Below, one piece after another: positions 16,955 through 37,103 of a stretch of 64,000 nucleotides of DNA (within the stretch, counting starts at the first letter, position 1; each line of letters opens with the position of its first letter). Both the position numbers and the translations under genes were made by a program. Source of the DNA: Desulfatiglandales bacterium (GTDB lineage Bacteria > Desulfobacterota > DSM-4660 > Desulfatiglandales > Desulfatiglandaceae); contig OY759599.1 in assembly GCA_963662465.1 (NCBI GenBank), positions 6,240,001 to 6,304,000 on the forward strand, given 5' to 3'. The notes below the pieces were generated by a model. It was not told the DNA's origin. It ran no database searches and worked only from the letters and a program-made list of their open reading frames with translations.

Positions 16955-17389
16955 GTTGAAACCAAGGGAGACAACGAGCAGCGATATCGGTGGAAGCTGA
17001 TCCTCATTAAAAGACTCTACCGCCAGGGATACGCTAAAGCAGATGTGATCAGGCTGTTTGCATTTATAGATTGGGTCATGTCCCTGCCCGCGGATATGGA
17101 AAAAGGCCTTTGGACGGAAATCCAAAAGTTCGAGGAGGAAACGAAAATGGAATATGTTACCAGCGTGGAAAGAATCGGTATAGAGAAAGGCATGGAGAAA
17201 GGCAGCCTGAATCTTCTGTGCCGTCTCATTGCGAAGCGGTTTAAAACCGGTTCCGAATCGCTTCCGCCGATCTTCACGGGTTTGCGTGCGGAAGATATCG
17301 AAGATCTTGGAGAGCGTTTCCTGGATGCCGAGAGCGTGGATGAGATTCGTCGATGGGCGGAAGAGAAACGCAGGGCGAGGATGCAGTAG
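16955..17389 (+). pseudogene. Rpn subfamily A copy A1, 5'-truncated; intact internal ORF 17147..17389
   Basis: Near-identical to the 3' half of 24656..25654; GAGGAGG-spacer-ATG at 17147. Confidence 0.85.
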
Positions 17390-17526
17390 AGCAGGGACTC
17401 AGCCCATGGATATCTGGGTGGCGCTTTATAAAAAACATCAACGGACGCGGAGCGTCCACCCGGTTGTAATCCTTATCCCGTTCATCCTGTATATCCATGT
17501 TCATTTTTCCATTGGTTCAAGAAATG

Positions 17527-17922
17527 GTATGCGTTCACGGGTTCATCGCTTCCTTCGGGATACCATTGTGTCGGAGCTGAAGGTGGAAGGTTCGTAGTGT
17601 GCCCGTAAGGCATGGAGTGGACATGCAACCAAACGTCTCACGGCGTCACTACGAACGTCGCAACAGAGCGCATTAACCCCCGGAAAATCCACTTTCGCTG
17701 CCGAATAACCTTAGAGCCTGTTTAAAAATTATCCCTGCTGCGGTCGGCTGCGGCTTCCGATGGCTGCGTCAGCGACAAAAATGGGTCTTCAGCGTAGCTC
17801 GACTACGCTTTCAGCCCCATTTTTATCGCTTCCTTGCCCTCGAAAACCTCGCTCAACCTCGCGACGGGATAATTTTTAAACAGGCTTTTAGAACCGTGGA
17901 CACTGAACCCGTGAATGGTTAC
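17527..17922. mobile_element. MITE with GTA..TTCACGGGTTCA inverted ends (IS66-like ends), containing a nested MITE
   Basis: GTATGCGTTCACGGGTTCA / TGAACCCGTGAATGGTTAC; second copy 30339..30559 lacks the nested insert. Confidence 0.6.
17714..17887. mobile_element. 174-bp MITE with 22-bp TIR and TTA target duplication (IS5-like)
   Basis: GAGCCTGTTTAAAAATTATCCC / GGGATAATTTTTAAACAGGCTT; TTA on both sides; empty site at approx. 30525. Confidence 0.85.
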
Positions 17923-18238
17923 AGAAAAAGATAGAGCAAGATATTATGGTACTTCTAAAAAAAGAAACTGCCCCGAATGCGGAGGAGAAATGCATTCCCG
18001 GCTTATCAATCTTCTATATAAAAAAGAGAAGTGCGAAATTCAGGTTGATGTGATCGGAATACCAGCCAATGTTTGTACGAAATGTTTTTACAGAATTATT
18101 CCGGGCAAAATCGCAAAATATATTGATTCCCTGGTTGATCCGATATTTGAATCTGAAATCGGGCAGCAGGAAAAAATACTTCCTGCTCCACATGTAGGTA
18201 TTTGGTTTCTGCCGGCAGAAAGAGAATTTTATTGCTAA
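17915..18238 (+). CDS. YgiT-type zinc finger protein (MqsA N-terminal-like), 5' end uncertain
   Basis: CPECGG...IPANVCTKC. Confidence 0.7.
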   Translation: MVTEKDRARYYGTSKKRNCPECGGEMHSRLINLLYKKEKCEIQVDVIGIPANVCTKCFYRIIPGKIAKYIDSLVDPIFESEIGQQEKILPAPHVGIWFLPAEREFYC

Positions 18239-18339
18239 TTTTCAATACCTCTGGCTATTCGTGTAATTCGAGTGTGGTTTTTGGCGCTCGAAGACATTCC
18301 TCTGCCAGGGTGCAGTACTCCCGGGAGCTTCCTTGGCAT

Positions 18340-18869
18340 GCCGATCTTTCGGAATACAGTGATGAAGAGATTAAAGGCGCTGTTGTTTTGAGAGTTGTCT
18401 TTCTCCTTTTGAAGCATATTTTTTCAAGCGATCTTCCGGAAAAATTCCCTGGGATTTTGGGTCTGTTAAAAGACCTTCTGAATAAACGAAACGGTCTTGA
18501 ATATCTTGAGACGGTGTTGCGATATGTTAGCTTCAGGGAGTGATCAAATAGGCAGTGTCGAGATTGAGGAGAGCGTTAGACAGGTTTTTTGAAGGTCAGG
18601 GAGGAGATATTATGCCAACAGCATCTGAACAATGGATCGAGCAGGGAATTGAGCAGGGAATTGAGCAGGGAATGCAGAAGGGGGCTATGAAACTTTTGTC
18701 CCGTCAAATTGTGAGGCGTTTTCAGGTCAGCTCTGATTCTGTTCATCCGATCTTTGCCGGCTTAACCACAGAGCAACTTGAAGAATTGGGGGAGAGGTTT
18801 CTTGAAGCTGAAAGTTTGGATGAAATTCAGGCTTGGGCAGAGGAAAAACGGTTGACAAAAGCGCAATAA
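18340..18869 (+). pseudogene. Rpn subfamily C copy C1, truncated and frameshifted; intact internal ORF 18612..18869
   Basis: DLSEYSDEEIKG..LLLKHIF..LETVLRYV, then GGAGGAGATATT-ATG MPTASEQWIEQG(IEQG)n plus DUF4351-like tail. Confidence 0.8.
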
Positions 18870-18877
18870 ATTGCCCT

Positions 18878-18902
18878 CGTTCCTACGCTCCGGCGTAGGA
18901 AC
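18878..18902. repeat. REP-like hairpin; unoccupied equivalent of the intron-2 target
   Basis: CGTTCCTACGC-TCCG-GCGTAGGAAC; flanks match 31183-31190 and 33119 onward. Confidence 0.8.
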
Positions 18903-19120
18903 CCATACCGGGCGGCGTTGACACGCCAGGGCTGAACCCGCCTCCCATGACTTTTTGAAACATGATGTGAAAGTCTTTTTCATACCTTGAAAACCAACAC
19001 CAGCTCCAAGCTCCGAGATCCAAATACGTTGCATATTTGTCTGTCAGGTTTTTCCTCAAACGGCTCACGACCAATTATTGGAACTGCAAAGGGTCTGGTT
19101 TCTGGTGGGGTGGGGGGGGG

Positions 19121-19290
19121 ATGCTTGAGGCAATCCAGCGATTCATCGATACCAATTCCCTCGACGCGGTATTTGATGTTCCGGCCTCGATTATTGAAAC
19201 ATACAAAGACGATTTTGCGAAATATGTAACCCAGTCCGATTTGCTCCGTTTTCATAAGGTGTTTAACTATGTCCCCATGGCCGCCGGCGG
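19121..19290 (+). pseudogene. Fragment of an AAA_14/DUF4143 ATPase paralogous to 61553..62956
   Basis: MLEAIQRFIDTNSLDAVFDV..YKDDFAKY..FNYVPMAAG. Confidence 0.8.
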
Positions 19291-19477: not shown

Positions 19478-19969
19478 ATGTCAGAGATTGACAAATGGGA
19501 TGAAGTGTTTGAACAACGCCTGACCGGCTTCTTAAAGGAGCATTTGGCCGAGCTCTTGACCAGCGAAGGCCTGAGTCGGCCTGCCAAGGTTTACGAGATA
19601 GAACTTCGGGAGCGGCTTGTGAGGGTGGAAGAGGCGATTAAACACCAGAGCGAGCTGATCCAAAAGACCCTCGACTTCATGGATGTGCGGTTCGGCGCCG
19701 TGGACAAGCGGTTTGAGGCGGTGGACAAGCGGTTCGAGGCGGTGGACAAGCGGTTCGAGGAATTGAGAGAGGATATGAATACACGGTTCGAGGCCGTGGA
19801 TAAGCGGTTTGAAGAGCTGAGAGAGGATATGAATACACGGTTCGAGGCCGTGGATAAGCGGTTTGAGGCCGTGGATAGGCGCTTCAACTCGTTGCAGTGG
19901 CTGATAGGGGGAGGGTTTACCTTCCTGACCGTCGTTATCGTCCTTATGAAATTCCTCGTCGGCCCTTGA
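19478..19969 (+). CDS. Coiled-coil repeat protein with C-terminal membrane anchor (DUF1640/Bdr-like)
   Basis: (FEAVDKR)n heptads and FEELREDMNTR 11-mers, then WLIGGGFTFLTVVIVL; SD GGGAG. Confidence 0.7.
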   Translation: MSEIDKWDEVFEQRLTGFLKEHLAELLTSEGLSRPAKVYEIELRERLVRVEEAIKHQSELIQKTLDFMDVRFGAVDKRFEAVDKRFEAVDKRFEELREDMNTRFEAVDKRFEELREDMNTRFEAVDKRFEAVDRRFNSLQWLIGGGFTFLTVVIVLMKFLVGP

Positions 19970-20159
19970 GTTGCCGCTACGCCATGAATTTGTACCTTCC
20001 TTGAACTGCGCGGGACGTTCATAAGAAACTAAGAAACTCGCCAGGCGTACATTGATTTCCCGCTCGCCGAGGCCGCGTATCGGTTGTTATTCGAAAATTA
20101 TTGCAAAGCGGCTGATTACGACAGTCCGTGGAAAAACGCTTCGGAATGTTATTTCCTCT

Positions 20160-20238
20160 CGTTCCCACGCTCCAGCGTGGGAATGCACTGTGGACGCTCA
20201 GCGCCGTTCGCACCGTTCCCACGCAGAGCGTGGGAACG
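20160..20238. repeat. REP doublet (CGTTCCCACGC..GCGTGGGAAYG x2); forms the 5' exon of intron 1
   Basis: Two palindromic hairpins at 20160-20185 and 20214-20238. Confidence 0.85.
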
Positions 20239-22141
20239 GTGCGCCTGTGAAGGCGCTTTATCAGTGCGGTGAAAGTCCGTACCGGAGTATGCCATAGCTC
20301 CGTAGCCGAAGGTAACTGCGTCGCCGCGAGGCGGGGTGGAGAGCAACCGGAGGCGAAAAGTCAGTCCGTAGGATGACGAACCCGATTCGGTGTCATGTGG
20401 TGGCGAGCCTACCGTTCCATGGTGAAGCCTGAAACTCACAGACCACGCTGTAATGGCGGTTAAAGCGATGGTTTGACGGCATGGTATGTTTGGGGTCGGA
20501 ATGACTGGAAGGTAAAGCGAGATAAGCAGGGAGACCTGTCTCTTGGGGTGACAGGAGGCAGGAGTCAGAGTCCTCATAGTACCGTAGCGACAGAACGGTC
20601 CTGCTAACAAGGCTTACGGCGTGAGACCAGTACCCGCCGCCTGCGTCGGATACCGGGTTGTGAAAAGCGCGGATAGCAAAACCGTGCCGAGGGAAGGAGG
20701 ATAGGAAGATAGATACGGAAAGGTCATATAGATGCAGCTAAATCAAGCAGTCTCGGCAGTGTTGGAAACAACTAAACGCGAGGCAGAAACCCGATGGGAT
20801 TGGGTGGAAGCATCGGTGTGGACGGAACGTATGTTGGCAGCCCTGGGTAACGGGGTGAAAGGTGGTAAATGGTACAGTTTGATGGATAAGGTGTTCGCCT
20901 TGTCGACGCTGGAAGCGGCTTGGGGACGTGTCAAAGCCAATAAAGGAGCGGCAGGGATAGACCGTATCAGCATAAAGCGCTTTAAGGAGCAGGCGGAGAA
21001 ATACCTTGCCGAACTGCATGAAACCTTGAAAGCGGGAACGTACCGACCGGAAGCGGTAAAACGGGTATACATTCCGAAAAGCGACGGCAAACAACGCCCG
21101 CTGGGGATACCCACGGTCAAAGACCGGGTAGTGCAGGCAGCGGTTAAAATGGTTATGGAGCCCATATTCGAGCATGAATTTCTGCCGATGAGTTACGGCT
21201 TCAGGCCGCAAAGAGGTTGCAAGGACGCGTTGCGAGAAGTAGACGCGCTTATTAAGGAAGGCTACACCTTCATACTGGACGCCGACCTGAAAAGTTACTT
21301 TGATACGATTCCGCACGATAAGCTGATGCAACAAGTCGAAATGCGCATCAGCGACGGCAAATTGCTCAATCTGATTCAAATGTTCCTGAAACAGGACGTG
21401 ATGGACGGCTTGGAAAGATGGACACCGACGGGTGGTTCGCCACAAGGGGCGGTAGTCAGCCCCTTGCTTGCGAATATTTACCTGCATCCTCTTGACAGCC
21501 TGATCGCGGAATCAGGTATGCGGATGGTGCGTTACGCAGACGACTTTGTTATCCTCAGCCGCAGTCAAACGGAAGCGGAGAATGCTTTGCAAAAGGTACG
21601 GGAGTGGGTACAGGCTAATGACCTGAGCTTACACCCGGACAAGACGCATCTTGGCGACTGTCGACAAAAGGGTCAGGGATTTGAATTCCTGGGATACCGG
21701 TTTGAGGCAGGAAAGCGCTGGATACGCAGTAAAAGCCGTAAAGCCCTTCGTGATAAAATCCGGGAAGAGACCCGGCGCAAACGTAGCGGAAGTATGGAAA
21801 GCATCATTGATGATCTGAACCCCATGCTTGAAGGCTGGTTTGGTTACTTCAAACACGCCTACCGCACTGAGTTTGCGGCGGTGGATAAGTTTGTCCGCCG
21901 ACGCTTACGCGCCGTATTATTGCGTCGTAACAAACGCAAGGGCTGGGGCAAAAGCCTTGAAGCCCACCGCCGCTGGCCGAATGCCTACTTCGCGAAAATC
22001 GGGCTTTTCACTATGCATGAGGCCCGGTTAGCAGCGTGCCGATCCCGATGAGGAAACTATCGACCGGAGAGCCGTGTGCGGGAGAACCGCATGCACGGTT
22101 CGGAGGGAGGGGAGAGCCAAGAGGCTCTTTCCTACCCCTAT
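20239..22141 (+). mobile_element. Group II intron, copy 1 (1903 bp)
   Basis: 5' GTGCG, domain V GAGCCGTGTGCGGGAGAACCGCATGCACGGTTC, domain VI ending CCTACCCCTAT; boundaries supported by copy 2 and its empty site. Confidence 0.95.
20732..22051 (+). CDS. ltrA: Group II intron reverse transcriptase/maturase (no endonuclease domain)
   Basis: NKGAAGID, RPLGIPTVKDR, SYGFRP, PQG, RYADD, FLG, domain X GWFGYF. Confidence 0.95.
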   Translation: MQLNQAVSAVLETTKREAETRWDWVEASVWTERMLAALGNGVKGGKWYSLMDKVFALSTLEAAWGRVKANKGAAGIDRISIKRFKEQAEKYLAELHETLKAGTYRPEAVKRVYIPKSDGKQRPLGIPTVKDRVVQAAVKMVMEPIFEHEFLPMSYGFRPQRGCKDALREVDALIKEGYTFILDADLKSYFDTIPHDKLMQQVEMRISDGKLLNLIQMFLKQDVMDGLERWTPTGGSPQGAVVSPLLANIYLHPLDSLIAESGMRMVRYADDFVILSRSQTEAENALQKVREWVQANDLSLHPDKTHLGDCRQKGQGFEFLGYRFEAGKRWIRSKSRKALRDKIREETRRKRSGSMESIIDDLNPMLEGWFGYFKHAYRTEFAAVDKFVRRRLRAVLLRRNKRKGWGKSLEAHRRWPNAYFAKIGLFTMHEARLAACRSR

Positions 22142-23203
22142 AGGGAGTGTAGTGCGTAAAAACGAGTATACTCTCCAACGGTTGTGATTTACACCCGTAC
22201 AGCTGTACCGCAAAGACGGCAGCGATGAATGGGTGTTGGCGCACGTGGAAGTGCAGGGGCAGAAAAAGAAACCGTTCCCTGAGAGGATGTACACTTATAA
22301 TTACCGAACATTTGACCTTTTTCATCGGAAAGTAGCCAGTATCGCGATTCTGGCGGATGAAAATCCTTTGTGGCGTCCGGATCATTTCAGTTATGACTTG
22401 TGGGGAAGTCGTGCCGGGCTGTGGTTTCCATGTGTGAAGCTTCTTGATTACCGTGAGAAATGGTTGGAACTGGAGGAGTCGACCAATCCCTTTGCCTCGG
22501 TTGTGATGGCGTATTTAAAGGCGGTTGAAACCAAGGGAGACAACGATCAGAGATACCGGTGGAAGCTGATTCTCATTAAAAGACTCTATCGCCAGGGATA
22601 CGCTAAAGTAGATGTGATCAGGCTGTTTGCATTTATAGATTGGGTCATGTCCCTGCCTGCGGATATGGAAAAAGGCCTTTGGACGGAAGTCCAAAAGTTT
22701 GAGGAGGAAACGAAAATGGAATATGTTACCAGCGTGGAAAGAATCGGTATGGAGAAAGGTATGGAGAAAGGCATGGAGAAAGGCAGCCTGAATCTTCTGT
22801 GCCGTCTCATTGCGAAGCGATTTAAAACCGGTTACGAATCGCTTCCGCTGATCTTCACCTTGGGTTTGCGTGCGGAAGATATCGAAGATCTTGGCGAGCG
22901 TTTCCTGGATGCCGAGAGTGTGGATGAGATTCGTCGATGGGCGGAAGAAAAACGCAGGGCGAGGATGCAGTAGTGCAGGGACTTAGCCCATGGACATCTG
23001 GGTGGCACTCTGTAAAAAACATCAACGGACGCGGAGCGTCCACCCGGTTGGGGAGGGTGGCTTCAATTCCGGTTGTAATCCTTATCCTGTTCATCCTGTA
23101 TATCCATGTTCATTTTTCCATTGGTTCAAGAAATGGATAATGATTATGTCGCTGTTCACAGGAGAAGTTCTTCTCGGCACGCAAGCGCCGGTGTTTCATT
23201 TTA

Positions 23204-23232
23204 TTGACAATTCTCTTTAAATGAGCCACAAT
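23204..23232 (+). promoter_or_regulatory. Sigma-70-type promoter directly abutting the B1 start codon (duplicated before B2)
   Basis: TTGACA-N17-CACAAT; ATG 7 nt downstream with no SD. Confidence 0.6.
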
Positions 23233-23239
23233 CGACACC

Positions 23240-24214
23240 ATGGTCGAACATGACAACAGTTACAAGCTTCTTTTTTCCCATGCGGAGATGGTCCGGGATT
23301 TGCTTCTGGGTTTTGTGAAAGAGGAGTGGGTCCGGAAACTCGATCTGGCGTCATTGGAACGGGTGAGCGGGTCCTATGTAAGCGATGATATCCGGGATCG
23401 GCACGACGATATTGTCTGGCGGGTGAAGTGGGGCCGAGAGTGGCTCTATGTGTACATCTTGATCGAGTTTCAGTCAACCATCGATAAATACATGCCACTG
23501 CGTGTCCTGGTGTATGTCGGGCTTTTATATCAGGACCTGATTCGGGAAAAGAAACTGGGACCTTCGGGCAAATTGCCGGCTGTTCTGCCGGTGGTACTGT
23601 ATAATGGGAGCCGGCGCTGGGACAAGTCCACCGAATTGTGGGACCTGATCGAGGATGTGCCTGGGGGGCTATCCCAATATCGTCCCCGGTTCACATTCTT
23701 GCTGCTGGACGAAGGCGCTTACCGGGATGAAGATCTGAAACCGCTTAAGAATCTTGTTTCGGCCCTGTTCCGTTTGGAAAACAGCCGGAACCCGGAACGG
23801 ATCAGGGAGGTGGTAACAGTGCTGTTGGATTGGCTGGCTGCGCCCGAACAGGCGAGTTTGAGACGCGCCTTTACGGTATGGTTTAATCGGGTATTTTTTC
23901 CGTCCCGAGGAAAGGAAATGATACCCCCTGAATTTGAAGAACTGACGGAGGTACGTGCCATGCTGGCTGAAACCGTTGCGGAATGGAAAGAAGAATGGAA
24001 GAGGGATGGGCTGAAAGAAGGCCTGAAGAAAGGCCTGAAGAAAGGCCGGAAGGAGGGTGAAGCGAACATTCTTTTAAAGCTTATTGAGATGAAATTTGGA
24101 CGAATAAGCCTAATAGATCGAAAAAGGGTTCAATCGGCTGACAGTGAAACTCTGTTGAGATGGGGGAAACAAATTCTCACAGCCAACAAAATGGATGAGA
24201 TATTCAGACTGTAA
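23240..24214 (+). CDS. Rpn family (YhgA/Transposase_31-like) nuclease, subfamily B copy B1; internal ORF 23960..24214
   Basis: HDNSYKLLFS, DDIVW, YILIEFQS, PVVLYNG; internal GGAGGT-N6-ATG. Confidence 0.88.
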   Translation: MVEHDNSYKLLFSHAEMVRDLLLGFVKEEWVRKLDLASLERVSGSYVSDDIRDRHDDIVWRVKWGREWLYVYILIEFQSTIDKYMPLRVLVYVGLLYQDLIREKKLGPSGKLPAVLPVVLYNGSRRWDKSTELWDLIEDVPGGLSQYRPRFTFLLLDEGAYRDEDLKPLKNLVSALFRLENSRNPERIREVVTVLLDWLAAPEQASLRRAFTVWFNRVFFPSRGKEMIPPEFEELTEVRAMLAETVAEWKEEWKRDGLKEGLKKGLKKGRKEGEANILLKLIEMKFGRISLIDRKRVQSADSETLLRWGKQILTANKMDEIFRL

Positions 24215-24655
24215 GTCTAAGGAAAATTGGGACAGGCAAATAATGCCTCTATCAGCCCGCCATGTCATGGAACGGAAGTGGGACGTCCATAAAAAGCTAA
24301 AAAAGTCGCCAGGCGTACAATGATTTCCCGCTTGCCGAGGCCGCGTATCGGTTGTTATTCGAAAATTATTGCAAAAGGGAATAGGCTCAGACCTCAATCT
24401 TCTGACAGAATCAATCCCCCTTCCAGCGGGATTAACGGGATAAAAGAAAAAAGGTTATCAGTATACTGAAAATCACGTAAATCCTGTCACAATAACCCGG
24501 TAATATTCAAAAGGGACAGGCCGATAATTTTATATTGGCGACGTGGGCCGAATTCTCCTTGATCTCCATTGCTTCCATCAATTTCCAAACATCAAAAGAA
24601 CCTTGCCCGACCTTGGGATTTCTGATATTCTGGTAGTATATTCAAACTCGAATGG

Positions 24656-25654
24656 GTGGAACAAAAAATGACCTTTGACTCTGAAACGGCTGATTACGAC
24701 AGTCCGTGGAAAAACGCTCTGGAATGCTATTTTCGTGAATGCATTGAGTTTTTTCTTCCTGATATGGCGCAGGATGTGGATTGGGAAAGGGGATGCCTTT
24801 TTTTGGACAAGGAATTTCAGCAGGTGTCCAAAAATGCGGCTGTCGGTCGCAGATATGCCGACAAACTCGTACAATTGTACCGCAAAGACGGCAGCGATGA
24901 ATGGGTGTTGGCGCACGTGGAAGTGCAGGGGCAGAAAAGGAAACCGTTCCCTGAGAGGATGTACACTTATAATTACCGAACCTTTGACCTTTTTCATCGG
25001 GAAGTAGCCAGTATCGCGATTTTGGCGGATGAAAATCCTTTGTGGCGTCCGGATCATTTCAGTTATGACTTGTGGGGAAGTCGTGCCGGGCTGTGGTTTC
25101 CATGTGTAAAGCTTCTTGATTACCGTGAGAAATGGTCGGAACTGGAGGCATCGACCAATCCCTTTGCCTCGGTTGTGATGGCGCATTTAAAGGCGGTTGA
25201 AACCAAGGGAGACAACGAACAGCGATACCGGTGGAAGCTGATCCTCATTAAAAGGCTCTACCGCCAGGGATACGCTAAAGCAGATGTGATCAGGCTCTTT
25301 GCATTTATAGATTGGGTCATGTCCCTGCCCGCGGATATGGAAAAAGGCCTTTGGACGGAAATCCAAAAGTTCGAGGAGGAAACGAAAATGGAATATGTTA
25401 CCAGCGTGGAAAGAATCGGTATGGAGAAAGGCATGGAGAAAGGCATGGAGAAAGGCATGGAGAAAGGCAGTCTGAATCTTCTGTGCCGTCAAATTGCGAA
25501 GCGGTTTAAAACCGGATACGAATCGCTTCCGCCGATCTTCACGGGTTTGCGTGCGGAAGATATCGAAGATCTTGGCGAGCGTTTCCTGGATGCCGAGAGC
25601 GTGGATGAGATTCGTCGATGGGCGGAAGAAAAACGCAGGGCGAGGATGCAGTAG
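24656..25654 (+). CDS. Rpn family nuclease, subfamily A copy A3 (full length); internal ORF 25388..25654
   Basis: DYDSPWK, FLDKEF, ADKLV, HVEVQ, ERMYTYNYR, NPFA, (GMEK)4, DUF4351-like tail. Confidence 0.88.
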   Translation: MEQKMTFDSETADYDSPWKNALECYFRECIEFFLPDMAQDVDWERGCLFLDKEFQQVSKNAAVGRRYADKLVQLYRKDGSDEWVLAHVEVQGQKRKPFPERMYTYNYRTFDLFHREVASIAILADENPLWRPDHFSYDLWGSRAGLWFPCVKLLDYREKWSELEASTNPFASVVMAHLKAVETKGDNEQRYRWKLILIKRLYRQGYAKADVIRLFAFIDWVMSLPADMEKGLWTEIQKFEEETKMEYVTSVERIGMEKGMEKGMEKGMEKGSLNLLCRQIAKRFKTGYESLPPIFTGLRAEDIEDLGERFLDAESVDEIRRWAEEKRRARMQ

Positions 25655-25754
25655 AGCTGAGGGACTCAGCCCATGGACATCTTTCCCAAAAACCTCGATT
25701 TAAGTTCACAGATTTCTTGTTTTTCATGACAGAAAACCTGGAAATAAGGTACTA

Positions 25755-25876
25755 AACAGCTTGAAGAGGAATTCCAGGTTTCGGTGGATGCTTACCTTGA
25801 TTTTTGTAAAGATCTTGGGGAGACTCCAGAAAAACTATATTCAGGGAAGATTGTGTTGCGCTTGCTGCTCAAATAG
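25755..25876 (+). pseudogene. hicB C-terminal relic (related relic at approx. 33240..33308)
   Basis: QLEEEFQVSVDAYLDFCKDLGETPEKLYSGKIVLR. Confidence 0.65.
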
Positions 25877-26175
25877 CCAACCAGAGCCTCAACGTATGGG
25901 CAGCAGAGCATTTGATCAAAAATGCCGAACAAGAACTTCAAAAGCCTTTTTGAAGAAATTGGTTTCCCTGCCTGAGTCTCCGATTTTTCTTGCACATTAA
26001 TAGTATGCCCCTACGCTAAACGCAACATGCACAAAATAGACCCTCTTCCGAGCATCTTCAGGATAAAAAAAGCCTGTATAGTGAAGTACCTTTTATCGGA
26101 ACTTATAGCCACATAAGTTCTGACAATCAGAACCTTATCCTTGACACATCGAGCCTCAGAGTGTATTGAAATTAT

Positions 26176-26481
26176 ATGCACATAATCGCCCGTAACTCAC
26201 TAATTGAATTTGGGGTAAAATATCCGGACGGCAGAACGGCTGTTGACAGGTGGTGGACCATATGCAGAAAAAATACTTTTTGTTCTTTCTCCGACCTGAA
26301 AAAGACATTCGGCACAGCCGATATGGTAAACAGATGTGTTATTTTCAACATCGGTGGCGGAAAATATAGATTGGTGGTAAGCGTCAACTTTGTGGGCCGG
26401 AGAATGTGGGTAAAGTATGTGTTACCCCATAATGAATATGAAAAACTTGATCTGAAGGAGGACTCAAAATGCCGGCCGTAG
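26176..26481 (+). CDS. higB: HigB-family toxin
   Basis: MHIIA..LKKTFGTADMV..VIFNIGGGKYRLVV..HNEYEK. Confidence 0.88.
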   Translation: MHIIARNSLIEFGVKYPDGRTAVDRWWTICRKNTFCSFSDLKKTFGTADMVNRCVIFNIGGGKYRLVVSVNFVGRRMWVKYVLPHNEYEKLDLKEDSKCRP

Positions 26482-26849: not shown

Positions 26850-26913
26850 CACGGACACACAGGCTGACACCGACTTTTTCACCTATCGCAGCTTCTTCCA
26901 TGACGAAGAAACC

Positions 26914-27046
26914 GGCATCCTTCAAAACAGCTCAAAAGTAGTTTACACTTTTGAAAAGTGAAAGGTGAAAAGTTGACGACTCTTCACTCTTCGGCATCCG
27001 GTGCATGACTTTTCAAAAAAGTGTAAACTGCGAGATGAAGGATGCC
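26914..27046. mobile_element. 133-bp MITE-like element with nested inverted repeats
   Basis: GGCATCCTTCA / TGAAGGATGCC ends; inner AGTTTACACTTTT..AAAAGTGTAAACT; absent from the paralogous position near 34350. Confidence 0.65.
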
Positions 27047-27516: not shown

Positions 27517-27782
27517 AGCAGAGACTCAGCCCATGGACATCTGGGTGGTGCTTTGTAAAAAACATCAACGGACGCGGAGCGGCCACTCGGTTGGGGAGGG
27601 TGGCTTCAATTCCGGTTGCAATCCTTATCCCGTTCATCCTGTATATCCATGTTCATTTTTCAATTGGTTCAAGAAATGGATAATGATCATGTCGCTGTTC
27701 ACAGGGGAAGTTCTTCCCGGCACGCAAGCGCCGGTGTTTCATTTTATTGACAATTCTCTTTAAATGAGCCACAATCGACACC

Positions 27783-28841
27783 ATGGTCGAACATGACAAC
27801 AGTTACAAGCTTCTTTTTTCCCATGCGGAGATGGTCCGGGATTTGCTTCTGGGTTTTGTGAAAGAGGAGTGGGTCCGGAAGCTCGATCTGGCGTCATTGG
27901 AACGGGTGAGCGGGTCCTATGTAAGCGATGATATCCGGGATCGGCATGACGATATTGTATGGCGGGTGAAGTGGGGTCGAGAGTGGCTCTATGTGTACAT
28001 CCTGATCGAGTTTCAGTCAACCGTCGATATATACATGCCACTGCGCGTCCTGGTGTATATCGGGCTTTTATATCAGGACCTGATCCGGGAAAAGAAACTG
28101 GGACCTTCGGGCAAATTGCCGGCTGTTCTGCCGGTGGTACTGTATAATGGGAGCCGGCGCTGGGACAAGTCCACCGAGTTGTGGGACCTGATCGAGGATG
28201 TGCCTGGGGGGCTATCCCAATATCGTCCCCGGTTTACATTCTTGCTGCTGGACGAAGGCGCTTACCGGGATGAAGATCTGAAACCGCTTAAGAATCTTGT
28301 TTCGGCCCTGTTCCGTTTGGAAAACAGCCGGGACCCGGAACGGATCAGGGAGGTGGTAACAGCGCTGTTGGATTGGCTGGCTGCGCCGGAACAGGCGAGT
28401 TTGAGACGCGCCTTTACGGTATGGTTTAATCGGGTATTTTTTCCGTCCCGAGGAAAGGAAATGATACCCCCTGAATTTGAAGAACTGACGGAGGTACGTG
28501 CCATGCTGGCTGAAACCGTTGCAGAATGGAAAGAAGAATGGAAGAGGGATGGCCGAAAGGAAGGCCTGAAAGAAGGCCGGAACGAAGGCCTGAAAGAAGG
28601 CCGGAACGAAGGCCTGAAAGAAGGCCGGAACGAAGGCCTGAAAGAAGGCCGGAACGAAGGTCGGAAGGAGGGTCGGAAGGAGGGGGAAGCAAACATTCTT
28701 TTAAAGCTTATTGAACTGAAGTTTGGACCCATAAACCTGAAAGACCGAAAACTGGTTCAATCCGCTGACAGCGAAACCCTGTTGAGATGGGGAAAACAAA
28801 TTCTCACAGCCAACAAAATGGATGAGATATTCAGACTGTAA
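27783..28841 (+). CDS. Rpn family nuclease, subfamily B copy B2; internal ORF 28503..28841 with expanded 12-bp repeat
   Basis: Near-identical to B1; (GLKEGRNE)4 expansion. Confidence 0.88.
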   Translation: MVEHDNSYKLLFSHAEMVRDLLLGFVKEEWVRKLDLASLERVSGSYVSDDIRDRHDDIVWRVKWGREWLYVYILIEFQSTVDIYMPLRVLVYIGLLYQDLIREKKLGPSGKLPAVLPVVLYNGSRRWDKSTELWDLIEDVPGGLSQYRPRFTFLLLDEGAYRDEDLKPLKNLVSALFRLENSRDPERIREVVTALLDWLAAPEQASLRRAFTVWFNRVFFPSRGKEMIPPEFEELTEVRAMLAETVAEWKEEWKRDGRKEGLKEGRNEGLKEGRNEGLKEGRNEGLKEGRNEGRKEGRKEGEANILLKLIELKFGPINLKDRKLVQSADSETLLRWGKQILTANKMDEIFRL

Positions 28842-29103
28842 GTCTAAGGAAAATTGGGACAGGCAAATAATGCATCTATCAGCCCGCCATGTCATGGAAC
28901 GGAAGTGGGATGTCCATAAAAAGCTAAGAAAGTCGCCAGGCGTACATTGATTCCCCGCTTGCCGAGGCCGCGTATCGGTTGTTATTCGAAAATTATTGCA
29001 GAAGGGAATAGGTTCAGACCTCAATCTTCTGACAGGATCAACTGGATTAACTGGATAAAAGAAAAAAGGTTATAAGTATCCTGAAAATCAAGTAAATCCT
29101 GTC

Positions 29104-30174
29104 ACATTTGACCTTTTTCATCGGAAAGTAGCCAGTATCGCGATTCTGGCGGATTAACGTGAAAAAATGTTTCGCCACCAGGAAAAACCTCGGTGCATTC
29201 GTCATAAAGAATCGTATGTATTCGGAACCCGACGAACCCATGGTTATTTTTCCCACGCGGTAGGTCAGGGTGCGGCGCGTCCCGTTTTTTCCTCTGACGC
29301 TGTTGAATCCCAAATGGGTTGAAATCCATCAAACGACCGAAAAAACTCCAACGCGCCGTTCCCTGACATTTTTGCGACCACCCCAACGTCGCCAATGGGA
29401 TTATCGGTTTATGCCGAATCAATGTCAGGTAATCCCGCGTGTGGACATGTGGGATTTTGAATGTTCATGGGGGTTGGCGTGGAAATCGAAATTTCGCGGT
29501 AAAAATGTGAACGCGGGACAACCTGACCTACTGACTATACAACTTTTCCCCTCCGGGAATGTTTTTACGTCAATCCGCGATGAACCAAAAATCCTTTGTG
29601 GCGTCCGGATCATTTCAGTTATGACTTGTGGGGAAGTCGTGCCGGGCTGTGGTTTCCATGTGTAAAGCTTCTTGATTACCGTGAGAAATGGTCGGAACTG
29701 GAGGCATCGACCAATCCCTTTGCCTCGGTTGTGATGGCGCATTTAAAGGCGGTTGAAACCAAAGGAAACAACGATCAGCGATACCGGTGGAAGCTGATCC
29801 TTATTAAAAGACTCTACCGCCAGGGATACGCTAAAGCAGATGTAATCAGGCTGTTTGCATTTATAGATTGGGTCATGTCCCTGCCTGCGGATATGGAAAA
29901 AGGCCTTTGGACGGAAATCCAAAAGTTCGAGGAGGAAACGAAAATGGAATATGTTACCAGCGTGGAAAGAATCGGTATGGAGAAAGGCAGCCTGAATCTT
30001 CTGTGCCGTCAAATTGCGAAGCGGTTTAAAACCGGTTACGAATCGCTTCCGCCGATCTTCACGGGTTTGCGTGCGGAAGATATCGAAGATCTTGGCGAGC
30101 GTTTTCTGGATGCCGAGAGCGTGGATGAGATTCGTCGATGGGCGGAAGAGAAACGCAGGGCGAGGATGCAGTAG
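29104..30174 (+). pseudogene. Rpn subfamily A copy A5, truncated and interrupted by MITE T2; intact internal ORF 29944..30174
   Basis: TFDLFHRKVASIAILAD fragment, insertion, then NPLWRPDH to the stop. Confidence 0.85.
29149..29586. mobile_element. MITE type T2 (left tip deleted)
   Basis: Homologous to 37420..37867; right end CAATCCGCGATGAACC followed by AAAAATCC. Confidence 0.75.
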
Positions 30175-30338
30175 AGCTGAGGGTCTCAACCCATGGACAT
30201 CTGGGTGGCGCTTTGTAAAAAACATCAACGGACGTGGAGCGTCCACCTGGTTGGGGAGGGTGGCTTCAATTCCGGTTGTAATCCTTATCCCGTTCATCCT
30301 GTATATCCATGTTCATTTTTCCATTGGTTCAAGAAATG

Positions 30339-30559
30339 GTATGCGTTCACGGGTTCATCGCTTTCTTCGGGATACCATTGTGTCGGAGCTGAAGGTGGAA
30401 GGTTCGTAGTGTGCCCGTAAGGGCATGGGGTGGGCATGCAACCAAACGCCTCACTGCGTCACTACGAACGTCGCAACAGGGCGCATTAACCCCCGGAAAA
30501 TCACACTTTCGCTGCCGAATAACCTTAGAAACATGGACACTGAACCAGTGAACGGTTAC
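30339..30559. mobile_element. Second copy of the GTA-ended MITE (no nested insert)
   Basis: GTATGCGTTCACGGGTTCA / TGAACCAGTGAACGGTTAC. Confidence 0.6.
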
Positions 30560-30664
30560 CTAATTTCAAATACCTCTGGCTATTCGTGTAATTCGAGGGT
30601 GGTCTTTGGCGCTCGAAGACATTCCTCTGCCAGGGTGCCGTATTTCCGGGATCTTCCTTGGCAT

Positions 30665-31182
30665 GCCGATCTTTCGGAATACAGTGATGAAGAGATTAAA
30701 GGCGCTGTTGTTTTGAGAGTTGTCTTTCTCCTTTTGAAGCATATTTTTTCAAGCGATCTTCCGGAAAAATTCCCTGGGATTTTGGGTCTGTTAAAAGACC
30801 TTCTGAATAAACGAAACGGTCTTGAATATCTTGAGACGGTGTTGCGATATGTTAGCTTCAGGGAGTGATCAAATAGGCAGTGTCGAGATTGAGGAGAGCG
30901 TTAGACAGGTTTTTTGAAGGTCAGGGAGGAGATATCATGCCAACAGCAGCTGAACAATGGATTGAGCAGGGAATTGAGCAGGGAATGCAGCAGGAGGCTA
31001 TGAAACTTTTGTCTCGTCAAATTGTGAGGCGTTTTCAGGTCAGCTCTGATTCTGTTCAACCGATCTTTGCCGGCTTAACCACAGAGCAACTTGAAGAATT
31101 GGGGGAGAGGTTTCTTGAAGCTGAAAGTTTGGATGAAATTCAGGCTTGGGCAGAGGAAAAACGGTTGACAAAAGCGCAATAA
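30665..31182 (+). pseudogene. Rpn subfamily C copy C2; intact internal ORF 30937..31182
   Basis: Duplicate of C1 with the same frameshift; GGAGGAGATATC-ATG. Confidence 0.8.
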
Positions 31183-31190
31183 ATTACCCT

Positions 31191-33093
31191 ATAGGGGTAG
31201 GAAAGAGCCTCTTGGCTCTCCCCTCCCTCCGAACCGTGCATGCGGTTCTCCCGCACACGGCTCTCCGGTCGATAGTTTCCTCATCGGGATCGGCACGCTG
31301 CTAACCGGGCCTCATGCATAGTGAAAAGCCCGATTTTCGCGAAGTAGGCATTCGGCCAGCGGCGGTGGGCTTCAAGGCTTTTGCCCCAGCCCTTGCGTTT
31401 GTTACGACGCAATAATACGGCGCGTAAGCGTCGGCGGACAAACTTATCCACCGCCGCAAACTCAGTGCGGTAGGCGTGTTTGAAGTAACCAAACCAGCCT
31501 TCGAGCATGGGGTTCAGATCATCAATGATGCTTTCCATACTTCCGCTACGTTTGCGCCGGGTCTCTTCCCGGATTTTATCACGAAGGGCTTTACGGCTTT
31601 TACTGCGTATCCAGCGCTTTCCTGCCTCAAACCGGTATCCCAGGAATTCAAATCCCTGACCCTTTTGTCGACAGTCGCCAAGATGCGTCTTGTCCGGGTG
31701 TAAGCTCAGGTCATTAGCCTGTACCCACTCCCGTACCTTTTGCAAAGCATTCTCCGCTTCCGTTTGACTGCGGCTGAGGATAACAAAGTCGTCCGCGTAA
31801 CGCACCATCCGCATACCTGATTCCGCGATCAGGCTGTCAAGAGGATGCAGGTAAATATTCGCAAGCAAGGGGCTGACTACCGCCCCTTGTGGCGAACCAC
31901 CCGTCGGTGTCCATCTTTCCAAGCCGTCCATCACGTCCTGTTTCAGGAACATTTGAATCAGATTGAGCAATTTGCCGTCGCTGATGCGCATTTCGACTTG
32001 TTGCATCAGCTTATCGTGCGGAATCGTATCAAAGTAACTTTTCAGGTCGGCGTCCAGTATGAAGGTGTAGCCTTCCTTAATAAGCGCGTCTACTTCTCGC
32101 AACGCGTCCTTGCAACCTCTTTGCGGCCTGAAGCCGTAACTCATCGGCAGAAATTCATGCTCGAATATGGGCTCCATAACCATTTTAACCGCTGCCTGCA
32201 CTACCCGGTCTTTGACCGTGGGTATCCCCAGCGGGCGTTGTTTGCCGTCGCTTTTCGGAATGTATACCCGTTTTACCGCTTCCGGTCGGTACGTTCCCGC
32301 TTTCAAGGTTTCATGCAGTTCGGCAAGGTATTTCTCCGCCTGCTCCTTAAAGCGCTTTATGCTGATACGGTCTATCCCTGCCGCTCCTTTATTGGCTTTG
32401 ACACGTCCCCAAGCCGCTTCCAGCGTCGACAAGGCGAACACCTTATCCATCAAACTGTACCATTTACCACCTTTCACCCCGTTACCCAGGGCTGCCAACA
32501 TACGTTCCGTCCACACCGATGCTTCCACCCAATCCCATCGGGTTTCTGCCTCGCGTTTAGTTGTTTCCAACACTGCCGAGACTGCTTGATTTAGCTGCAT
32601 CTATATGACCTTTCCGTATCTATCTTCCTATCCTCCTTCCCTCGGCACGGTTTTGCTATCCGCGCTTTTCACAACCCGGTATCCGACGCAGGCGGCGGGT
32701 ACTGGTCTCACGCCGTAAGCCTTGTTAGCAGGACCGTTCTGTCGCTACGGTACTATGAGGACTCTGACTCCTGCCTCCTGTCACCCCAAGAGACAGGTCT
32801 CCCTGCTTATCTCGCTTTACCTTCCAGTCATTCCGACCCCAAACATACCATGCCGTCAAACCATCGCTTTAACCGCCATTACAGCGTGGTCTGTGAGTTT
32901 CAGGCTTCACCATGGAACGGTAGGCTCGCCACCACATGACACCGAATCGGGTTCGTCATCCTACGGACTGACTTTTCGCCTCCGGTTGCTCTCCACCCCG
33001 CCTCGCGGCGACGCAGTTACCTTCGGCTACGGAGCTATGGCATACTCCGGTACGGACTTTCACCGCACTGATAAAGCGCCTTCACAGGCGCAC
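31191..33093 (-). mobile_element. Group II intron, copy 2 (1903 bp, inverted relative to copy 1)
   Basis: Reverse complement of 20239..22141; inserted at CCCT|CATTCCCACGC. Confidence 0.95.
31281..32600 (-). CDS. ltrA: Group II intron reverse transcriptase/maturase
   Basis: Protein identical to 20732..22051; at least two silent SNPs. Confidence 0.95.
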   Translation of the reverse strand: MQLNQAVSAVLETTKREAETRWDWVEASVWTERMLAALGNGVKGGKWYSLMDKVFALSTLEAAWGRVKANKGAAGIDRISIKRFKEQAEKYLAELHETLKAGTYRPEAVKRVYIPKSDGKQRPLGIPTVKDRVVQAAVKMVMEPIFEHEFLPMSYGFRPQRGCKDALREVDALIKEGYTFILDADLKSYFDTIPHDKLMQQVEMRISDGKLLNLIQMFLKQDVMDGLERWTPTGGSPQGAVVSPLLANIYLHPLDSLIAESGMRMVRYADDFVILSRSQTEAENALQKVREWVQANDLSLHPDKTHLGDCRQKGQGFEFLGYRFEAGKRWIRSKSRKALRDKIREETRRKRSGSMESIIDDLNPMLEGWFGYFKHAYRTEFAAVDKFVRRRLRAVLLRRNKRKGWGKSLEAHRRWPNAYFAKIGLFTMHEARLAACRSR

Positions 33094-33611
33094 CATTCCC
33101 ACGCTCCGGCGTGGGAACCCATACCGGGCGGCGTTGACACGCCAGGGCTGAACCTGCCTCCCATAACTTTTTAAAACATGATGTGAAAGTCTTTTTCATA
33201 CATTGAAAACCAACACCAGCTCCAAGGCTGGAAAATCCCAAAGATCTTGGGGAGACTCCAGAAAAACCATATTCAGGGAAGTTTGTGTTGCGCTTGCTGC
33301 CCAAATAGCTAACCAGAGCCTCAACGCATAGGCAGCAGAACATTTGATCTAAAATGCCGAACAAGAACTTCAAAAGCCTTTTTGAAGAAATTGGTTTCCC
33401 TGCCTGAGTGAGTCTCCGATTTTTCTTGCACATTAATAGTATGCCCTACGCTAAACGCAACATGCAGAAAATAGACCCCTCTTCCCAGCATCTTCAGGAT
33501 AAAAAAAGCCTGTATAGTGAATTACATTTTATCTGAACTTATAGCCACATAAGTTCTGGCAATCAGAACTTTATCCTTGACACATCGAGACTCAGAGTGT
33601 ATTGAAATTCT

Positions 33612-33917
33612 ATGCACATAATCGCTCGTAACTCACTGATTGAATTTGGGGTAAAATATCCGGATGTCAGAATGGCTGTTGACAGGTGGTGGACTATATG
33701 CAGAAAAAATACTTTTTGTTCTTTCTCCGACCTGAAAAAGACATTCGGCACAGCCGATATGGCAGATAGATGTGTTATTTTCAACATCGGTGGCGGAAAA
33801 TATAGATTGGTCGTAAGAGTCAACTTTGTGGGCCGGAGAATGTGGATAAAGTATGTGTTACCCCATAATGAATATGAAAAGCTTGATCTGAAGGAGGACT
33901 CAAAATGCCGGCCATAG
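33612..33917 (+). CDS. higB: HigB-family toxin, second copy
   Basis: Six substitutions versus 26176..26481. Confidence 0.88.
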   Translation: MHIIARNSLIEFGVKYPDVRMAVDRWWTICRKNTFCSFSDLKKTFGTADMADRCVIFNIGGGKYRLVVRVNFVGRRMWIKYVLPHNEYEKLDLKEDSKCRP

Positions 33918-34285
33918 ATGGTATGGATTCCAGAGATTTATATCCACTGATAGTTATAAGAAGCCAGGATGATTACAAAAAGGCACTTGGTTCCATGGAG
34001 ACTGTTTTTGATGAGGAGACAGGTCCCCTGGCAGATTATGCAGAAACACTTGCCATCCTGATTGTGCACTATGAGGAACAGAATTTTCCATTGGAGAAAA
34101 AACAGGGAGTGGAAGTCCTGAAGTTTCTTATGGAACAGAATGGTCTCAAACAAAGGGATCTGGTGGGGACTCTTGGAGGGAAGTCGACTGTTTCGGAGAT
34201 ACTTAATGGGAAAAGGCCATTAAACTTGCAGCACATCAGGACCTTGGCAGATAGATTCCATGTTGTGCCCGGAACCTTTGTTTAA
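33905..34285 (+). CDS. higA: HigA-family antitoxin, second copy
   Basis: Near-identical to 26469..26849. Confidence 0.88.
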   Translation: MPAIDGMDSRDLYPLIVIRSQDDYKKALGSMETVFDEETGPLADYAETLAILIVHYEEQNFPLEKKQGVEVLKFLMEQNGLKQRDLVGTLGGKSTVSEILNGKRPLNLQHIRTLADRFHVVPGTFV

Positions 34286-34511: not shown

Positions 34512-34575
34512 AGCCTCGACCGTCGCGGCGAGACGCCGCTCACACAGCGCCATTTTCATGCGCGGGGGGGGGGGG

Positions 34576-34915
34576 ATGCCTGAGGCAATCCAGCGATTCA
34601 TCGATACGAATTCGCTCGACGCGGTATTTGATGTTTATGCCTCGATTATAGAAACATACAAAGACGATTTTGCGAAATATGCAACCCAGTCCGAAGGCGA
34701 ATATTCAAGCCTTTCTTCTTGGATTGTGGCTTGATGAATACCATTTGCGGCGTTCAATGGATAGCATTGAACGAACTTAAGAGAACGTCATTTATCAATA
34801 AAGGCCATGTAGCTGAACAGTTCATTGCCCAACATCTTGTCTTCGTCGGAAAAAACAATGTAAGCCCGTTTTTGACCTACTGGTTGCGCGAAGGGAGGAC
34901 CGGAAATTTGGTGAC
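34576..34915 (+). pseudogene. Internally deleted fragments of an AAA_14/DUF4143 ATPase
   Basis: MPEAIQRFID.. then DCGLMNTICGVQW..YWLREGR, matching 61553..62956. Confidence 0.8.
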
Positions 34916-35255
34916 ATTTTAATCCGAAGTTGTTACCTGCGCAAGTTGTTTTTGTAACCGCTTACTGCTGACGAACTCTTATTCTTTGGATCTGTGCAGG
35001 TAGTGACTTACAGATTAAATGCTTCGAAAAAAACAAGATGATCAGTATAATAAGAGGAATTCATTGCTAAAAAAACTTAAAACTGCGTCTTGCCGCCTTA
35101 GCCATTATACATCCTAATTCTCCCCACCATCCCTTCCAGTCTTGCCCTTTCAGCTTTCACCTTTGGGTTTCTATCCATCCTATCCACAGCTCTCATCTTG
35201 ACAAATCCAACAAACTGGGTAATACTATGTATGCCCTAAAAACAGGAGGCTATTT

Positions 35256-35528
35256 TTGCGAATTAATGATTTCGAATGGGATGAGGGTAATGCCTTGCAT
35301 CTCCAACTGGGTCACGGTATTTCGCCGGAAGAGGCAGAAGAGGTCTTTGCCGGCGACCCTTTTTTCAGACGAACAAAAAAAGGGCATTACGCAGTTTTTG
35401 GTCCAACCTTTGAAGGAAGGTATCTGACGATTGTTTTCCAGCTAAAACCCAAAGGCATTGCTCGACCTTTCACCGGCTGGGATATGCGTCGAGCAGAAAT
35501 TCAATACTACAAGAAACACAGGGGATAA
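35256..35528 (+). CDS. brnT: BrnT-family toxin
   Basis: FEWDEGN..HGISPEEAEEVF..GPTFEGRYLTIVF; SD AGGAGG, TTG start. Confidence 0.85.
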   Translation: MRINDFEWDEGNALHLQLGHGISPEEAEEVFAGDPFFRRTKKGHYAVFGPTFEGRYLTIVFQLKPKGIARPFTGWDMRRAEIQYYKKHRG

Positions 35529-35530
35529 GA

Positions 35531-35824
35531 GTGGCAACACAAAAACCGGCGCCAAAAAACTGGGCGGAGTATTACGACCAGGAAAATATTCTGGAGGAAA
35601 TCCTGGAGGACGCGGTCAATTTCAGCTTGAACGAAGATCTTCTTCAGGCCATCGTTGCAGGCAAGCGTAAGAGAAAACTGAAAAATATCTCTATCAAGAT
35701 AGATCCTCTGCATGTTTCAGCTATCAAGAAGCTTGCTACAATGAAGGCTATCCCTTATCAGACTTTGGTAAGACAGTGGCTTGCAGAGGATATTAGGAAG
35801 GAATTGGATGCGGTCACAAAATAG
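35531..35824 (+). CDS. CopG/BrnA-like RHH antitoxin
   Basis: ISIKID..IKKLA..IPYQTLVRQWL; directly downstream of brnT. Confidence 0.8.
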   Translation: MATQKPAPKNWAEYYDQENILEEILEDAVNFSLNEDLLQAIVAGKRKRKLKNISIKIDPLHVSAIKKLATMKAIPYQTLVRQWLAEDIRKELDAVTK

Positions 35825-36092
35825 CTGGATTCATGGGCTTATCAACTTCTCCACCTAAATTTGTGCATGTTACCCCATAAAAGAAAAAAGGTTGTAAGTA
35901 TCCTGAAAATCACGTAAATCCTGTCACAATAACCCGGTAATATTCAAAAGGGACAGGCCAATAATTTTATATTGGCGACGTGGGCCGAATTCTCCTTGAT
36001 CTCCATTCCTTCCATCAATTTCCAAACATCAAAAGAACCTTGCCCGACCTTGGGCTTTCTGATATTCTGGCAGCATATTCAAACTCGAACGG

Positions 36093-37103
36093 GTGGAACA
36101 AAAAATGACCTTTGACTCTGAAACGGCTGATTACGACAGCCCGTGGAAAAACGCTCTGGAATGCTATTTTCGTGAATGCATTGAGTTTTTTCTTCCTGAG
36201 ATGGCGCAGGATGTGGATTGGGAAAGGGGATGCCTTTTTTTGGACAAGGAATTTCAGCAGGTGTCCAAAAATGCGGCTGTCGGTCGCAGATATGCCGACA
36301 AACTCGTACAACTGTACCGCAAAGACGGCAGCGATGAATGGGTGTTGGCGCACGTGGAAGTGCAGGGGCAGAAAAGGAAACCGTTCCCTGAGAGGATGTA
36401 CACTTATAATTACCGAACATTTGACCTTTTTCATCGGAAAGTAGCCAGTATCGCGATTCTGGCGGATGAAAATCCTTTGTGGCGTCCGGATCATTTCAGT
36501 TATGAATTGTGGGGAAGTCGTGCCGGGCTGTGGTTTCCATGCGTGAAGCTTCTTGATTACAGTGAGAAATGGACGGAATTGGAGGCATCGACCAATCCCT
36601 TTGCCTCGGTTGTGATGGCGCATTTAAAGGCGGTTGAAACCAAGGGAGACAACGAGCAGCGATACCGGTGGAAGCTGATCCTCATTAAAAGGCTTTACCG
36701 CCAGGGATACTCTAAAGCAGATGTGCTCAGGCTGTTTGCATTTATAGATTGGGTCATGTCCCTGCCTGCGGATATGGAAAAAGGCCTTTGGACGGAAATC
36801 CAAAAGTTCGAGGAGGAAACGAAAATGGAATATGTTACCAGCGTGGAAAGAATCGGTATGGAGAAAGGCATGGAGAAAGGCATGGAGAAAGGCATGGAGA
36901 AAGGCATGGAGAAAGGCAGCCTGAATCTTCTGTGCCGTCTCATTGCGAAGCGATTTAAAACCGGTTACGAATCGCTTCCTCCGATCTTCACGGGTTTGCG
37001 TGCGGAAGATATCGAAGATCTTGGCGAGCGTTTCCTGGATGCCGAGAGCGTGGATGAGATTCGTCGATGGGCGGAAGAAAAACGCAGGGCGAGGATGCAG
37101 TAG
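36093..37103 (+). CDS. Rpn family nuclease, subfamily A copy A6 (full length); internal ORF 36825..37103
   Basis: Near-identical to A3; (GMEK)5. Confidence 0.88.
   Translation: MEQKMTFDSETADYDSPWKNALECYFRECIEFFLPEMAQDVDWERGCLFLDKEFQQVSKNAAVGRRYADKLVQLYRKDGSDEWVLAHVEVQGQKRKPFPERMYTYNYRTFDLFHRKVASIAILADENPLWRPDHFSYELWGSRAGLWFPCVKLLDYSEKWTELEASTNPFASVVMAHLKAVETKGDNEQRYRWKLILIKRLYRQGYSKADVLRLFAFIDWVMSLPADMEKGLWTEIQKFEEETKMEYVTSVERIGMEKGMEKGMEKGMEKGMEKGSLNLLCRLIAKRFKTGYESLPPIFTGLRAEDIEDLGERFLDAESVDEIRRWAEEKRRARMQ

Follow-up and report, generated by a model that had tools for sequence, protein, structure and literature searches.

The 64,000-nt window analysed here (Desulfatiglandales bacterium, contig OY759599.1, positions 6,240,001 to 6,304,000 of the forward strand; coordinates below are those of the window) contains an array of Rpn nuclease genes, in each of which a small open reading frame (ORF) begins at an internal start codon. 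The array is a real case of the known Rpn gene-within-gene system, with a long form (RpnL) and a small form (RpnS) encoded by the same gene. By analogy with E. coli, the long forms are inferred to be toxic nucleases restrained by the small forms. Several copies have lost the nuclease part and keep the small ORF (termed orphans below). We consider such broken copies to be intermediates of a decay in which the toxin is lost first, rather than an antitoxin store maintained by selection, and assign this reading a probability of about 0.6.

Ten Rpn copies, all on the plus strand, were confirmed between 16955 and 37103: six of subfamily A, two of B and two of C (Table 1). The internal ATG was found at the annotated position in 10 of 10 copies, preceded by GAGGAGG, GGAGGT or GGAGGAG and opening an ORF of 76-112 amino acids (aa). 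Only four copies are complete, two of B (23240 and 27783) and two of A (24656 and 36093), and an intact gene of subfamily C is absent from the window. The small ORF of all six broken copies in this range is free of frameshifts and stop codons. The initial annotation had generalised this to every broken copy, which does not hold, since an eleventh A remnant (37361-37419), just past the range then inspected, has no small ORF.

The gene-within-gene reading holds on sequence evidence. For subfamily A, 80 related loci were collected, among them 66 full-length genes with the anchor motif. A Shine-Dalgarno (SD) sequence of -6 kcal/mol or stronger precedes the internal start in 62 of these 66 homologs, compared to 17 of 335 other Met codons. 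Glutamate shortly upstream of the start is preferentially encoded by GAG (53 of 62 at codon -5 and 32 of 34 at codon -4; pooled 85 of 96), whereas GAG makes up 34% of Glu codons elsewhere (718 of 2089). The strong SD together with the GAG preference indicates that the start is selected at the DNA level; judged by the SD counts, the internal start is under selection throughout the family. SD strength ranges from -11.1 to -12.2 kcal/mol in the six window orphans and from -8.7 to -12.3 kcal/mol in all 14 orphans of the genome. Judging from the E. coli counterparts rpnD and ypaA, translation of the orphan small ORFs is probable. RNA contigs covering 22200-31200 (three metatranscriptomes and one run of unrecorded kind) had been assembled, mostly from other strains; such contigs carry no information on start sites or expression levels and were not used. 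Joins across the MITE (miniature inverted-repeat transposable element) and the 5' deletion in the fourth of these runs may stem from paralogs and were not taken as polymorphism.

Subfamilies A, B and C are all filed as Rpn here, based on profile matches and a structural model. B matches PF04754 with an E-value of 4.6e-30. The DUF4351 match of the small ORFs passes the cut-off in A and C and falls short of it in B. A scores weakly against PF04754 (E ≤ 0.05 for 25 of 50 members, 4.7e-4 at best), and hhalign aligned the A profile to B with 95.5%. Residues 14-153 of the A model were superimposed on the NucS nuclease 2vld with Z 7.5 and a root-mean-square deviation of 3.0 over 100 aligned residues, a middling Z which is supportive only. 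In the alignment of 50 A homologs, D15, D69, E89 and Q91 are invariant and R66 is present in at least 90%; these residues resemble the RpnP2 active site (mutations at D14, R66, E86 and Q88 in the available text of PMC10400941) by spacing only, without a direct alignment to RpnP2. No NCBIfam match was obtained for A, no PADLOC model matched the Rpn proteins of the window including A, and PDB sequence searches with the A profile and with P0123, a relative of C, found nothing. The C relatives P0122 and P0123 are encoded by whole or nearly whole PF04754 plus DUF4351 genes. The parent gene of C is absent from this genome and present in relatives, and the small ORF of the 30.9-kb C copy matches the tail of P0122 (304 aa) without a mismatch over 80 residues. 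A reading of the copies as transposases was rejected on the argument of Zhong et al. and on the duplication of the copies as whole blocks including their flanks.

The six broken copies had been described as disrupted by different lesions. Several lesions are common to copies, and about four independent lineages remain instead of six, because a block of MITE, A remnant, flank and C remnant occurs twice in the window and the two C copies have a truncation and two frameshifts in common. The duplicates are 16954-17715 and 29751-30529 (92% identity), and 18235-18877 and 30560-31190 (96%). The same MITE lies upstream of the 16.9-kb and the 29-kb A copies, and the remnant at 37361-37419 is a sister of the 29.1-kb copy, with an upstream deletion and a MITE of about 440 bp identical in kind. 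The A copies are 88-96% identical (repeat gaps counted), and of the 190 pairs formed by informative sites in eight A copies 100 were incompatible, which points to sequence exchange between them.

Preferential retention of the small ORF is no more than expected by chance when the window is taken alone: four lesions sparing a target of 26% have p of about 0.30, and 13 private substitutions without a stop have p of about 0.56. The upstream parts retained in four broken A copies are likewise free of point stops. Missense changes are suspicious in two small ORFs. The 27-kb copy has Leu changed to Pro inside a predicted helix (300-312), at a site which is Leu in 42 of 43 tails, and this change is likely damaging; the 22-kb copy has Pro changed to Leu plus an in-frame codon insertion.

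Genome-wide, preferential retention was confirmed. The genome has 24 intact Rpn-like genes in seven subfamilies, and 26 broken copies or remnants were classed by hand; the tally omits three 3' tips of at most 53 nt and seven unchecked 49-nt matches to one mid-gene stretch of subfamily E. The small ORF was kept in 14 broken copies, both parts were lost in 12 and the nuclease part alone was kept in none. All 14 orphans have an intact small ORF with SD, six in the window and eight outside. In a symmetric control, only the last ~85 codons were kept in 11 copies and only the first ~85 in none. After merging shared lineages, the 3' bias was 8:0 (p = 0.008). A comparison of 5' and 3' fragments had been proposed as a check, and its outcome is mixed: intact 5' ends alone are absent as anticipated, but remnants without the small ORF are about as common as those with it.

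A purely mechanical origin of this bias, in which deletions and MITE insertions happen to take 5' parts and selection plays no role, would suit the few independent lesions in the window, and remnants of DUF4143-type ATPases in the region also lack their first ~190 codons. This control comprises three remnants only, however, and the bias persists at unlinked loci (5:0 outside the window), across seven subfamilies and on both strands, which makes a mechanical cause highly improbable.

According to the preferred reading of toxin-first decay, a lesion in the nuclease part would be tolerated or favoured, and a lesion removing the small form would leave a residually toxic nuclease unopposed and would be purged. 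After inactivation of the nuclease, the small ORF would be near neutral and probably translated for a while; it would be kept tidy by the youth of the copies and by exchange between them, and be lost later. Decay is favoured because the tally of 14:12:0 matches the pseudogenisation of toxin-antitoxin (TA) systems in Photorhabdus (toxin alone 185, both 186, antitoxin alone 8), which the available text of Belot et al. 2026 (PMC13617665) reads as a two-step decay; 14:12 and 185:186 do not differ (Fisher p = 0.84). As in this erosion of type II TA systems, loss of the toxin only is about as frequent as loss of both, and loss of the antitoxin only is rare. The Photorhabdus study concerns two-gene systems, whereas in Rpn a lesion in the tail hits toxin and antitoxin together. 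Decay is further favoured because the copies are young, the orphan small ORFs showed no extra constraint in the substitution test and their repeats mismatch the resident toxins; because the surroundings are a scrapyard of mobile elements and TA modules (MITEs, two introns, HigBA twice, BrnTA, ATPase remnants); and because tail-truncated E. coli RpnD retains some toxicity, in that removal of 45 tail residues lowered toxicity about eightfold and left some (1.6-fold) according to the available text of PMC5350276.

Several observations weigh against toxin-first decay. The same eightfold drop on tail loss, taken together with the title of Fig. S4 in PMC10400941 (RpnL activity requires the C-terminal domain), implies that a tail lesion may cost little. 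In two of the 80 related loci the nuclease part is open but the small ORF is broken: in L035 (1540-1680), a Nostoc A homolog, a stop interrupts the small ORF after ten codons, and in L054 it has a frameshift, near a contig end. Judging from these sequences, tail lesions can be tolerated. Since tail-less RpnD is also weakly toxic, the small protein may itself be selected, and the 14:0 bias may call for selection of this kind in addition. In two other loci, L058 and L064, a stop lies upstream, and extra 3'-only copies occur at three loci (L019, L052 and L054); the search behind these 80 loci favours copies with an intact 5' part. The substitution test described below is underpowered with 34 changes, and a clustering test for recombination among the A copies was not significant (p = 0.23). 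Finally, the stretch ahead of the internal start is no shorter than 193 nt in any of the six window remnants and could house an internal promoter; a promoter scan found 12 sites versus 14.3 expected and no consistent internal promoter.

The initial annotation had proposed that the locus stores stand-alone RpnS modules, kept by selection to buffer resident Rpn toxins or to immunise against incoming mobile ones. In line with this, the 3' bias is real (11:0, collapsed 8:0), a strong SD is retained by 14 of 14 orphans, and stand-alone RpnS are expressed in E. coli (PMC10400941). All six window orphans, like stand-alone RpnS genes, have an intact small ORF with SD and derive from a full gene, which for C is present in relatives and not in this genome. 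The expected match to the toxins is lacking, however. Inhibition is paralog-specific, and RpnC of E. coli loses it when a single four-residue repeat is added (PMC10400941); the requirement of equal repeat numbers is drawn from this single RpnC experiment. The A copies carry 1-5 four-residue repeats within a predicted helix (252-284), the first helix in the small protein, the A orphans having 2, 3, 1 and 1 and the intact A genes 4 and 5. None of the six window orphans, and 2 of 14 genome-wide, both outside the window, aligned without gaps to a close intact paralog and thus equal a resident toxin in length. The best intact matches of the C orphans are tails of another subfamily, D (63/85 and 60/81, both gapped), with no cognate in the genome. 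The eight A1 copies of the genome jointly span 1-5 repeats, yet this is expected by chance with p of about 0.33. In addition, 12 of 26 remnants, among them the sister of the 29-kb copy, lack the small ORF, one orphan bears the likely damaging Leu to Pro change, and each intact gene already encodes its own antitoxin. Extra constraint was not detected: private substitutions in six broken A copies were 6 nonsynonymous to 7 synonymous in the small ORF and 11 to 10 upstream (p = 1.0; 34 changes), both ratios being below neutral, as expected for young copies exchanging sequence. The A profile matched in 7 of 40 other genomes, and no syntenic array was present in the three stretches examined. A selected antitoxin store is unsupported by these data and we regard it as unlikely, although neutralisation of foreign Rpn toxins is conceivable on sequence grounds. 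Such a store would be of consequence if real, yet the data agree with ordinary decay.

Near-identical tails of the small ORFs occur on distant nuclease subfamilies. Past the repeat, a DUF4351 tail is common to A, C and D, the heads of which are 17-24% alike. Tails 90-95% identical over the last 58 residues are attached to heads 17-18% identical (P0007/P0123 and P0013/P0122), in a congener (G008) an A head (70% nt identity) is joined to a tail that shares 84% identity with the C orphans, and comparison of 18612-18869 with G000 3956877-3957866 and L081 revealed a shared DUF4351 tail. The first 10-15 residues of the small ORF track the head subfamily, with the changeover inside the repeat tract. 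Mapped onto a tree of the tails, the A/C/D head label requires 14 changes, the minimum being 2; with well-supported branches only, 1-2 changes per group are forced. The tree comprises 55 columns with unsettled bootstrap, and 9 of 50 proteins were dropped for lack of the anchor motif. It is thus weak as sequence evidence, yet the pairwise contrast of heads and tails is plain. Tail exchange at the repeat tract between distant subfamilies was not found stated in the Rpn literature searched; the available text of Zhong et al. (PMC10400941) mentions fusion of a head to downstream rpnSs.

These contrasts would also suit a reservoir in which broken copies donate their variable C-terminal tails at the 12-nt repeat tract onto intact heads and so diversify specificity, and the A copies are indeed mosaic. 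No intact gene of the window bears the orphan tail of another subfamily, however, swaps are equally possible between intact genes, the tail tree is weak, and tail donation accounts for diversity and not for the retention of orphans; we hold it to be very unlikely. Rather doubtful, if slightly less so, is a combined role as a working tail library, in which the broken copies would be translated, span the repeat lengths, neutralise incoming Rpn and donate tails at the repeat tract. If it were true, the four-residue repeat would be a switching hub reassigning the specificity of toxin and antitoxin.

Like the published RpnL/RpnS systems, the genes here have a PD-(D/E)XK-type head, an internal SD and start, a DUF4351 tail and variable four-residue repeats located about 10-20 residues past the start of the small ORF, and they form tandem arrays by direct duplication with TA or defence genes nearby. 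The available text of Zhong et al. 2023 (PMC10400941) describes tandem rpn arrays and stand-alone small genes annotated as DUF4351. Differences are the weak match of A to PF04754 and its missing NCBIfam match, the interleaving of three subfamilies within one array, and the size of the small ORFs (76-112 aa here, 5.4 kDa for RpnA-S). In E. coli, stand-alone RpnSs genes (ypaA/rpnESs and rpnCSs) and an rpnD pseudogene of K-12 making RpnS, the small protein of which is expressed, are on record in the same text. The orphans resemble these in that a small ORF derived from a neighbouring full gene has outlasted a working long form; expression, established in E. coli, is predicted here. Unlike the E. 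coli cases, a single array holds six units here and the genome 14, and the repeat number of most of them is foreign to the resident long forms. The findings extend the gene-within-gene design to the divergent, mostly unnamed subfamily A (internal start, by sequence evidence from 66 homologs). They also supply a natural set of small proteins that differ in repeat number (1-5) on a common scaffold, useful for examining the rule of repeat specificity and the question, raised in a commentary (Koonin, PMC10400984), whether repeat variation blocks inhibition in trans.

Table 1. Rpn copies, mobile elements and TA modules of the array (nt, nucleotides; REP, repetitive extragenic palindrome; RT, reverse transcriptase; HTH, helix-turn-helix)
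Position	Strand	Feature	Details
16631-16953		156-bp REP-like MITE, then first 163 bp of ~440-bp MITE	replaces 5' part of first A copy
16954-17389	+	A remnant (gene nt 540 to end)	small ORF 17147-17389, 80 aa, 2 repeats
18340-18869	+	C remnant (Transposase_31 end)	two frameshifts upstream of internal start
18612-18869	+	small ORF of first C remnant	85 aa, DUF4351
20106-20154	+	scrap of A 5' end, 49 nt (gene nt 29-77)	start and promoter deleted
20155-22143	+	REP hairpins, then group II intron (20239-22143)	RT/maturase 20732-22051
22193-22973	+	A remnant (gene nt 210 to end)	REP hairpins and group II intron upstream
22716-22973	+	small ORF of 22-kb A remnant	85 aa, 3 repeats, one codon inserted
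23204-23232		sigma-70-like site ahead of intact B Rpn	promoter scan
23240-24214	+	intact B Rpn, 324 aa, PF04754	small ORF 23960-24214
24656-25654	+	intact A Rpn-like gene, 332 aa	small ORF 25388-25654, 4 repeats
26176-26849	+	HigB toxin and HTH antitoxin pair	second copy 33612-34285
27047-27516	+	A remnant (gene nt 494 to end)	small ORF 27286-27516, 76 aa, 1 repeat
27783-28841	+	intact B Rpn, 352 aa	small ORF 28503-28841, 112 aa
29104-30174	+	A copy with 5' deletion and ~440-bp MITE	MITE 29149-29588
29944-30174	+	small ORF of 29-kb A copy	76 aa, 1 repeat
30635-31182	+	second C remnant, lesions as in first	small ORF 30937-31182, 81 aa
31189 to about 33093-33120	-	second group II intron copy	at REP edge, few bases past C stop codon
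35256-35824	+	BrnT-like toxin and CopG antitoxin pair	
36093-37103	+	intact A Rpn-like gene, 336 aa	small ORF 36825-37103, 5 repeats
37361-37867	+	eleventh A remnant (gene nt 325-383) and ~440-bp MITE	small ORF absent

Three MITE families were distinguished, of 156 bp (16631-16785), 177 bp (17710-17886) and ~440 bp (29149-29588). The 156-bp REP-like MITE has dozens of copies in the genome; its terminal sequences are similar to those of the 440-bp MITE, and both interrupt A genes at genome positions 5413686-5416336. The two group II introns are 99.7% identical, each adjoins a REP hairpin, and about ten further copies are present in the genome. An empty REP site follows the first C copy (18878-18910).

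A YgiT-type zinc-finger gene (17915-18238) has an Atlas feature score of 0.96, is single copy in the genome and has no obvious toxin partner; it is possibly another orphan antitoxin. The pieces at 38012-38200 and 25754-25870, without a Pfam match, are presumably HicB antitoxin-like. Three intact DUF4143-type ATPases match PADLOC PDC-S01 (195-1469, 58072-59331 and 61553-62956), and remnants of such ATPases lie inside the array (19121-19288, 34570-34907 and 38289-39030). The region 19478-19969 encodes a 163-aa coiled-coil protein with heptad repeats, a C-terminal hydrophobic stretch and many paralogs in the genome. A cluster of type I secretion/peptidase-ABC genes that includes two radical SAM/SPASM genes (1622-15066) resembles an export locus for ribosomally synthesized and post-translationally modified peptides, and two type IV pilin genes (39395-40254) are followed by a run of genes for glycosyltransferase-like membrane proteins.

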